Shown here one piece after another: positions 45,404-46,043 of a stretch of 64,000 nt of DNA. The stretch is taken from the IMG/VR virus record IMGVR_UViG_3300005573_000073, positions 1 to 64,000 of that record, one strand, 5' to 3'. Position 1 is the first letter of the stretch. Every line of letters begins with the position of its first letter. Source of the DNA: a virus. The translations under genes were made by a program, and so were the position numbers. A model generated the notes under the pieces. The model did not search any database. It had not been told where the DNA came from and saw only the letters and a program-made list of their open reading frames with translations.

Positions 45404-45715
45404 TTATTCATCACCAATGATATCTGATATTTTACCCATAATATTTTTTAAACATTCAAAGCAAATCTCGCATAAACCCACTGGATCTTCACCTAACGTG
45501 TATTTGACAATTCTAATGCCATACGTATCTGAAAATCTACAGATGTCACAGCAGTTAACCTTGCAAAGTTGAACATCTACATGAGAACTTTTACTTTCAC
45601 ATTCGCTTTTACAACTTCTACATTTTTCACACATATTAAACCACAAAATATTATAATCTCTAAACTTATTAATAAACCTTTCGGTTTTTAAGCAATTACG
45701 TAAACAAGCCACCAA
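45404..45715 (-). CDS. Cys-rich protein (true start probably downstream, MCEKC)
   Basis: Multiple CxxC; a promoter near 45670-45687 lies inside the called 5' end. Confidence 0.45.
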   Translation of the reverse strand: MVACLRNCLKTERFINKFRDYNILWFNMCEKCRSCKSECESKSSHVDVQLCKVNCCDICRFSDTYGIRIVKYTLGEDPVGLCEICFECLKNIMGKISDIIGDE

Positions 45716-45761
45716 AACATTTAAATAATTAAAAACACAATAATATAAAACTAAATAAAGC

Positions 45762-46043
45762 GTATTGGGCTGTTCGAGAGATGAACGACTTGGTGAAGTT
45801 TAAAGTTTTGTTGAATGGTGTTGCCCGTAAAGTCCTGATTCTACTAGGCAGCAATATGAAGAGTCAAAAACACTGCAACTATGGTGAAACAGTCACTAGT
45901 TGCACCCGTAACTTCATAAATGAACACTTGAGCATGCATGAAGGTATAGGCGTGCATGCTGGTAGAAAATGTAGCTTATAGACGAGGCAATAAAAAATCC
46001 AAACATTTACAAACCCTTAAACCCCCCCACCAAGCCCCAATGC
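45762..46043 (+). ncRNA. candidate structured RNA of about 280 nt
   Basis: Terminal stem GTATTGGGC/GCCCCAATGC, long irregular rod and branched distal domain; promoter at 45711-45727. Confidence 0.65.

Follow-up and report, generated by a model that had tools for sequence, protein, structure and literature searches.

In archaeal genomes that are A+T-rich, G+C islands are said, after Klein, Misulovin and Eddy in 2002, to be the classical mark of a structural RNA gene, and the Hgc RNAs reportedly described in that work are orphan non-coding RNA (ncRNA) genes in such islands, each with a sharply bounded G+C-rich body, an archaeal promoter and no ORF. Other described RNAs offer further points of comparison. 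Archaeal SRP (7S) RNA (RF01857) is about 280–300 nt long and has paired 5′ and 3′ termini, a small 5′-proximal hairpin and a long rod that branches at its distal end. The phi29 pRNA (RF00044) is encoded by a virus, has its own promoter and folds into a 5′/3′-end helix and a multi-way junction with hairpin arms. Rod-shaped, protein-sequestering RNAs, such as bacterial 6S RNA and adenovirus VA RNA I, consist of a long imperfect duplex in which the two halves of the transcript pair, broken by internal loops and bearing a domain at the apex or center, and are made in trans from their own promoter. We know of no archaeal counterpart of these 6S/VA-type rods and, to our knowledge, almost no structured RNAs of archaeal viruses have been described beyond tRNAs and CRISPR- or TIGR-type guide arrays. 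The locus described here, a candidate orphan structured-RNA gene of an archaeal virus, shares traits with all of these RNAs, and we put the probability that it is an RNA gene at about 0.6–0.7.

The stretch of DNA analyzed (the window, 64,000 nt) covers the first 64 kb of a virus record that is complete at 93.7 kb, bears direct terminal repeats and has a G+C content of 31.5%. Besides a gene for a T4-type large terminase (41963–43666, minus strand), the genome carries one for a family B DNA polymerase and others for proteins with inteins. The virus is uncultured, tailed and probably archaeal, with promoters of the BRE/TATA type found in archaea. Five copies of the 16-mer GAATATTTAGGGTTAA (window 24112–28991) lie within the genes for two large proteins, of 640 and 1674 aa, which suggests repeated protein modules. 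The RNA locus sits in the largest gene-free gap of its neighborhood, among genes for small proteins without known function, a glycosyltransferase and the terminase block. The TTG start listed for the Cys-rich gene at one border of the gap is probably wrong: an alternative ATG at 45634 has GTGG 6 nt upstream and the promoter-like AACCGAAAGGTTTATTAATAAG at 45686–45665 (minus strand), and it gives a 76-aa protein, comparable in size to a 60-aa homologue-like ORF in one related locus (L015). Because the gene probably starts at this ATG, the non-coding gap would extend from about 45635 to 46211. The features of the locus are as follows.

45404–45715, minus strand: small Cys-rich gene (103-aa ORF as listed, TTG start), one border of the gap and first in the block leading to the terminase.
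45665–45686, minus strand: class-2-like promoter of the packaging operon, resembling AACCGCAAAGTTTATA and back to back with the RNA promoter.
45712–45727, plus strand: class-1 BRE/TATA promoter CCAAAACATTTAAATA, directed into the RNA stretch.
45750–45761, plus strand: putative 5′ leader, with transcription presumed to start near 45750, from the TATA spacing of leaderless genes and of the relatives' units.
45762–46043, plus strand: structured RNA body of 282 nt, comprising the closing stem P1 (45762–45769/46036–46043), a 5′ hairpin (45771–45787), a rod (45789–45847/45959–46034) and a branched tip (45848–45958).
45781–45981, plus strand: 66-aa ORF inside the RNA, judged non-coding from codon usage, ribosome-binding site and homology searches.
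46057–46065, plus strand: CTTTTATAC, the T-run nearest downstream of P1 and a putative archaeal terminator, from its sequence and from the strain contigs X4 and X5, which break or diverge just behind it (46066–46107).
46066–46211: A+T-rich hypervariable spacer outside the RNA, with an all-frame stop cassette (about 46081–46107) and short tandem repeats.
46212–46490, minus strand: g92, the other border of the gap.

All the helices listed in the original prediction are present, and ViennaRNA joins them into a single nested structure across 45762–46043 (minimum free energy (MFE) −77.2 kcal/mol, RNAfold). The ends are closed by P1 (8 bp, GUAUUGGG/CCCAAUGC), directly followed by the 5-bp 5′ hairpin (UGUUC/GAACG). 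The rod, interrupted by A-rich loops, adds about 60 bp beyond P1 and the hairpin through the helices CUUGGUG/CACCAAG, GUUUAA/UUAAAC, UUUGU/ACAAA, UGUUGCC-CGU/ACG-GGCAAUA and UUCUACUAG/CUGGUAGAA, with pair probabilities of 0.86–0.97 for its main helices. The three-way junction first proposed for the tip (UAUGAAG/CUUCAUA plus AGCAUGCAUG/CGUGCAUGCU) comes close to the optimum, at −75.3 against −77.2 kcal/mol; it is not the MFE structure and accounts for about 5–7% of the ensemble. One internal loop resembles a K-turn when read by eye: GCUU-AUA-GA-CG (45974–45984) lies opposite CG-UA-AAGU (45826–45833), with the G.A pair present and the second position A-U, not A.G.

Comparison with shuffled sequence, a check named in the original prediction, came out in favor of the structure, with z-scores against dinucleotide shuffles of −2.55 on the plus strand and −2.64 on the minus strand. 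The composition-corrected z-score is about −2.0, and a genome-wide control over the whole window places the candidate at rank 36–41 of 1,278 windows, in the top 3%; the TIGR hairpin arrays of the virus rank first and third, which validates this control. By RNALfold, the candidate ranks within roughly the top eight for stability among closed plus-strand structures of 200–320 nt. The fold beats chance yet is unexceptional alone, and folding energy is modest evidence. Nor can folding energy identify the strand, because both strands fold equally well (−77.3 versus −77.7 kcal/mol for plus and minus, with 80 pairs common to folds of 96 and 94 pairs).

The original prediction remarked on the resemblance of this rod to archaeal SRP RNA and offered a mimic of a host RNA as one reading. 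The likeness to 7S RNA is one of gross shape only. Where SRP RNA has helices 3 and 4, the candidate has a single 5′ hairpin, and inspection of the folds by eye rejects an SRP identity: helix 8, with its GNAR tetraloop and AGCA/SRP54-binding loops, is absent, as had already been noted from the sequence. The tip hairpin loops of the candidate are AACAG, ACUU/AACACUUGAG or AAGGUAUAGG, with no GNAR tetraloop, whereas the SRP RNA of an archaeal metagenome-assembled genome (MAG G001) shows the motif. Model RF01857 has no match in the whole virus at E ≤ 10; as a positive control, it scores 108.7 bits on the SRP RNA of that MAG and detects 12 of 14 control genomes. Direct comparison of the candidate with the SRP RNA of the MAG gives no similarity (z 0.2), and a full-length covariance model of the candidate (R1) has no match among 151 genomes from the phylum of the MAG. 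The SRP-like and host-mimic reading is unsupported.

Other families fared no better. Rfam yields nothing relevant at the gathering threshold across the whole window or at E ≤ 10 across 45500–46300, where the non-matching families include RNase P RNA, pRNA, 6S RNA, manA and HEARO; here again a check set out in advance turned up no family. RNase P RNA (RF00373, RF02357 and others) is rejected for lack of a match at E ≤ 10, and the one resemblance to its P4-forming regions CR-I and CR-V, an AAAGUCC heptamer similar to CR-I, is at chance level for 282 nt. The candidate adjoins the packaging gene block, which adds to its likeness to phi29 pRNA, but it is about 1.7 times longer, no loop–loop complementarity was noticed by eye and Rfam gives no match to RF00044; for large terminases of the T4 type, the type in this virus, we know of no RNA component. 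It shows no sequence or model match to 6S RNA and is missing a 6S-type central bubble. It shares the island, the promoter and the lack of a recognized gene with the Hgc RNAs; unlike them, it is carried by a virus, and homology to them was compared via Rfam only. A retron msr-msd RNA is rejected in that no reverse transcriptase gene is adjacent and no reverse transcriptase domain occurs among the scanned proteins, tRNA and tmRNA in that ARAGORN finds none in the window, and the C/D-box, H/ACA, BHB and MITE (target-site duplication) readings in that none fits by eye. The RNA is single copy in the virus, and its best complementarity to the rest of the genome is 14 nt (E 0.09). An antisense role within the virus is disfavored because there is no long complementarity elsewhere in the genome. 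A literature search turned up nothing on the candidate.

Searches for homologues returned nothing outside near-identical strains. We found no match by blastn against phage records and no exact 21-mer in IMG/VR (the 21-mer spans the variable position 45769), and chance matches only by blastn and nhmmer against 91 related loci and in a DNA search of five genomes (G001–G005). Besides the 151 phylum genomes, model R1 found nothing in 77 loci, four virus records and one MAG, or in four loci with filters off. By these searches, the candidate matches none of the known RNA families and is an orphan of one virus and its near-identical strains.

Relatives of the virus nevertheless have RNAs of their own in the corresponding place. 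Their loci were taken from IMG/VR, JGI metagenomes and GTDB genomes through a terminase search, in which the nearest terminases are 57–58% identical to the TerL of the virus (at most 58%). Two more distant terminase relatives (L093 and L094, 51–52% identical) lie on two contigs of MAG G001, a small archaeal genome (1.3 Mb) from a phylum whose sampled genomes measure 0.6–1.2 Mb; this possibly hints at the host lineage of the virus group, and a binning error could account for it. In L050, homologues of g92 and g50 border a 450-nt gap, and we identified slot units of 144–161 nt, all operon-sense, promoter-driven, end-paired and non-coding, at the following positions.

1621–1775 of L050, operon-sense: slot unit.
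3154–3297 of L042, operon-sense: slot unit, same lineage as the next two.
3160–3303 of L038, operon-sense: slot unit.
235–378 of L034, operon-sense: slot unit.
1606–1766 of L023, operon-sense: slot unit, same lineage as the next.
2181–2341 of L021, operon-sense: slot unit.
1179–1334 of L039, operon-sense: slot unit.

These units represent at least four lineages. They begin 26–35 nt after a class-1-like promoter and are closed by an 8–13-bp stem (CUUUCAUUGG/CCAAUGAAAG, AACUCAUUGG/CCCAAAUGAGUU, UAUUUGGUGAUUC/GAAUCAUUAAAUA and CAAUCAAU/AUUGAUUG); on the downstream side they are bordered by a U-run, an all-frame stop cassette and the packaging-operon promoter CCGCAAAGTTTATATA. They are mutually related (z 9.4 for L050 versus L042 and 6.6 for L039 versus L023) and share a hairpin, ACGNNUGU-loop-ACANNCGU, followed by GCCCGAA, with compensatory changes in four of ten pairs. 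Rfam finds nothing in four of the relatives, and the 48 matches to the motif CATTGGCAACGNNGAAAA in IMG/VR, none accompanied by the rest of the unit, were judged to be chance.

The candidate resembles these units in plan. Both have a class-1-type promoter, a closing stem around AUUGG/CCAAU-like strands and no ORF, both are backed by a U-run and an all-frame stop cassette, and both lie beside the class-2 promoter of the packaging operon. The candidate differs in being about twice as long and in the opposite orientation, and the units have a long arm before a short hairpin. In sequence no connection is detectable: a model of the conserved hairpin (R2) has no match in 45700–46211 at E ≤ 10 with cmsearch filters off, nor in the whole virus genome or five records, and local alignment of either strand of the candidate with ten gap transcripts of relatives gives z ≤ 2.2. 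We take the position to be conserved and the RNA gene in it to diverge rapidly or to be replaceable, an interpretation that draws on analogy of layout.

The promoter that the original prediction placed ahead of the structure belongs to a well-defined class. The extended class-1 consensus, CCA[AT]AA[AC]NTTTA[AT]ATA, has 11 copies in the 93.7-kb genome, the one at 45712–45727 included, and the core motif AAAMNTTTAWATA occurs 13 times in the window, where 0.92 are expected, with the copy at 45715–45727 directed into the structure. Other class-1 copies lie 5–65 nt ahead of start codons or ahead of the two TIGR guide arrays, which are non-coding. At the candidate, the TATA box ends 34 nt upstream of P1, compared with 26–35 nt in the non-coding units of relatives and with start codons 19–25 nt downstream of TATA in the leaderless-type genes of the virus. 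At the other end, the T-run at 46058–46061 has four T's only and lies 15 nt downstream of P1. The X4 and X5 strain contigs break or diverge at 45650–45716 and 46066–46107, the edges of the proposed transcription unit.

Other promoter-like sequences deserve mention in their own right. The promoter AACCGAAAGGTTTATTAATAAG of the packaging operon resembles both AACCGCAAAGTTTATA, which has six copies in the genome, and CCGCAAAGTTTATATA, which precedes the same operon in relatives. Motifs of this second class, distinct from class-1 CCAAAAAATTTAAATA, lie at window positions 3672, 5220, 7676, 46558 and 52893 and at genome positions 87194 and 90336, and AACCGCAAAGTTTATA-type motifs also precede the packaging operon in relatives with 50–58% terminase identity; judging by its motif, the class may mark a temporal gene class. 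A near-palindromic 16-mer, TTAAATAATTGTTTAA (not an exact palindrome), is found at 40149–40164, 13 nt behind the class-1 TATA box at 40120–40135, and also overlaps the class-1 TATA box of g92 (46513–46528, reverse), with similar sites behind class-1 promoters. A class-1 match at 27570–27582 (plus strand), within and antisense to the gene for the 1674-aa protein, could be either chance or an internal antisense promoter.

Four observations point to the plus strand: the consensus promoter, its spacing from P1, the T-run at 46058–46061 and an A-rich composition, which resembles that of the TIGR transcripts and of two of the relatives' units. The minus strand has a poor TATA-like box only, 13 nt from P1. 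We therefore favor the plus strand, by roughly three to one on these sequence features. One alternative is a functional RNA on the minus strand, either an intercistronic element between g92 and g103 that would serve the packaging-operon transcript as a signal for processing, stability or attenuation, or an RNA oriented like the relatives' units, and we consider it unlikely. Such an RNA would fold as well as the plus strand (z −2.64, −77.7 kcal/mol), would share the operon-sense orientation of those units and their P1-P2-P3 order, with the closing stem followed by a long rod and then a short hairpin, and would also have U-runs behind its structure. It would, however, be without a consensus promoter, its lone TATA-like box standing 13 nt from P1 when all comparable units have 26–35 nt, and read-through from g92 should be halted by the T5 run behind that gene on the same strand. 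The perfect class-1 promoter faces the plus strand, the A-rich composition seen in other non-coding transcripts is that of the plus strand, and neither strand aligns significantly with the RNAs of the relatives.

The base composition of the locus is that of a sharply bounded island. The RNA body has 42.2% G+C, compared with 21% in each non-coding flank (45635–45761 and 46044–46211). Genome-wide, no more than 0.9% of windows of 282 nt have as high a G+C content. At the locus, the qualifying windows start only at 45757–45769, which is at P1, so the edges of the island match the closing stem; elsewhere they occur only at 6963–7253, 29228–31326, 52358–52902 and 64110–64620, the first three of which fall within or overlap ORFs of at least 150 aa.

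Closely related strains conserve this same block. Material with the virus underlies runs X1–X3, from hot-spring and sediment samples, and no RNA run turned up among the sequencing runs that contain it. Contigs from sequencing run X3 belong to a strain 97–98% identical to the virus, which differs at 45716–46043 (328 nt) by three substitutions and one single-base deletion, with zero substitutions at 45770–45990. By comparison, the adjacent spacer at 46044–46211 (168 nt) has 12 substitutions and five indels, and the flanking genes (651 nt) have 11 substitutions, six synonymous and five non-synonymous. Variation among strains peaks in the part of the spacer at 46081–46211, where the stop cassette TAATTAATTAACAAGTTAATTAATTAA lies together with tandem copies of a unit of about 19 nt (AATATTAAACARTAACAT); there, X3 has gained 10 nt by one insertion and lost 6 nt by one deletion. 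Five strain changes fall in the RNA: one improves a pair (45991 U>C, turning G.U into G-C), two are neutral and two break P1 pairs (45769 G>A and 46041 U>C, the latter in X5), both of these from contigs of 2.5–7× depth. The X3 variant keeps the same architecture at −79.4 kcal/mol, 2.2 kcal/mol better, in a structure-preservation test that is not significant, as 13% of random mutation sets fold as well.

That last result, together with a fold just within the top 3% genome-wide, leaves some room for a fold that arose by chance, in an ordinary regulatory spacer or in a dead-end transcript. We regard this as improbable: an island of 42% G+C between flanks of 21% is unexpected of a spacer, and conservation equals or exceeds that of the neighboring genes while the true adjacent spacer is hypervariable.

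The conserved block also has to be set against a protein-coding reading, in which the 66-aa ORF would be expressed from the class-1 promoter as a small protein and the RNA fold would be incidental. Its ATG lies 53 nt from the promoter, within the range of real genes, the ORF is free of strain substitutions and its product has a C-x8-C-x7-H-x3-H pattern. Yet its codon score, from a usage log-ratio trained on the long genes of the virus, is −0.05 per codon, close to the 95 spurious ORFs (mean −0.14, s.d. 0.22), whereas the five real small neighbor genes are all clearly positive (+0.15 to +0.34). No GGTG-type ribosome-binding site precedes it, as one does other genes behind a class-1 promoter, and no Pfam family matches above the cut-off. 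Protein-level conservation had been named as grounds for doubting an RNA; the ORF matches only itself among 5.8 billion clusters and 1.84 billion representative proteins. The conserved G+C-rich block, moreover, overruns the ORF by 19 nt upstream and 62 nt downstream and fits P1 instead, and an ORF of such length is not rare by chance at the local composition (by our estimate, about 0.3 expected). On this sequence evidence, we judge the ORF not to be a gene, and a small protein as the product of the locus is very unlikely.

Equally hard to sustain is a DNA-level element, whether an origin of replication, a site of recombination or an imperfect palindrome of MITE-like type that was captured. In its favor, the long imperfect inverted repeat folds equally on both strands and lies beside an A+T-rich repeat-bearing spacer where gene orientation switches. 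Against it, conservation among strains is lowest in the A+T-rich repeats, the tip is branched and not palindromic, the element occurs once in the virus and in none of the genomes searched, no target-site duplication is visible, and a consensus promoter points into it.

Of the two possibilities raised in the original prediction, the novel viral ncRNA is the best-supported reading because a consensus promoter, a bounded G+C island and strain conservation coincide with no coding signal and no Rfam match; it stays putative, as a reading of sequence. In our estimate, the probability is about 0.6 that the stretch is a self-contained plus-strand gene for a structured ncRNA of about 310 nt. Under this ncRNA reading, the class-1 promoter would start transcription near 45750, and transcription would probably end at the T-run, at about 46060. 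With its ends paired, the transcript would form an imperfect rod of about 100 bp that carries a small hairpin near the 5′ end and branches at the tip. Its gene would stand back to back with the promoter that serves the packaging/morphogenesis operon.

Our best guess is that such an RNA would act in trans during infection, as a stable protein-binding scaffold or decoy. We prefer this to an antisense role because of the long imperfect duplex, the A-rich internal loops, the K-turn-like loop, the three-way tip and the want of an antisense target. The K-turn-like loop, as read by eye and with its non-standard second pair, would make L7Ae the first candidate partner.

A broader and quite doubtful extension, argued from analogy with the slot units, is that this family of tailed archaeal viruses keeps a fast-evolving, end-paired RNA gene by the promoter for packaging and morphogenesis. 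The RNA might then take part in virion assembly or in genome packaging, or in their timing, a counterpart of phi29 pRNA in role and not in ancestry, and the 282-nt rod might be a lineage-specific, inverted version.

If the gene is real, a complete 93.7-kb virus genome would contain a compact RNA gene, running from promoter to terminator, without a relative in Rfam. Its small size would allow the element to be synthesized, probed and used to pull out its protein partner. That relatives have a different end-paired RNA in this slot would point to a conserved role in these viruses that is filled by rapidly diverging RNAs.
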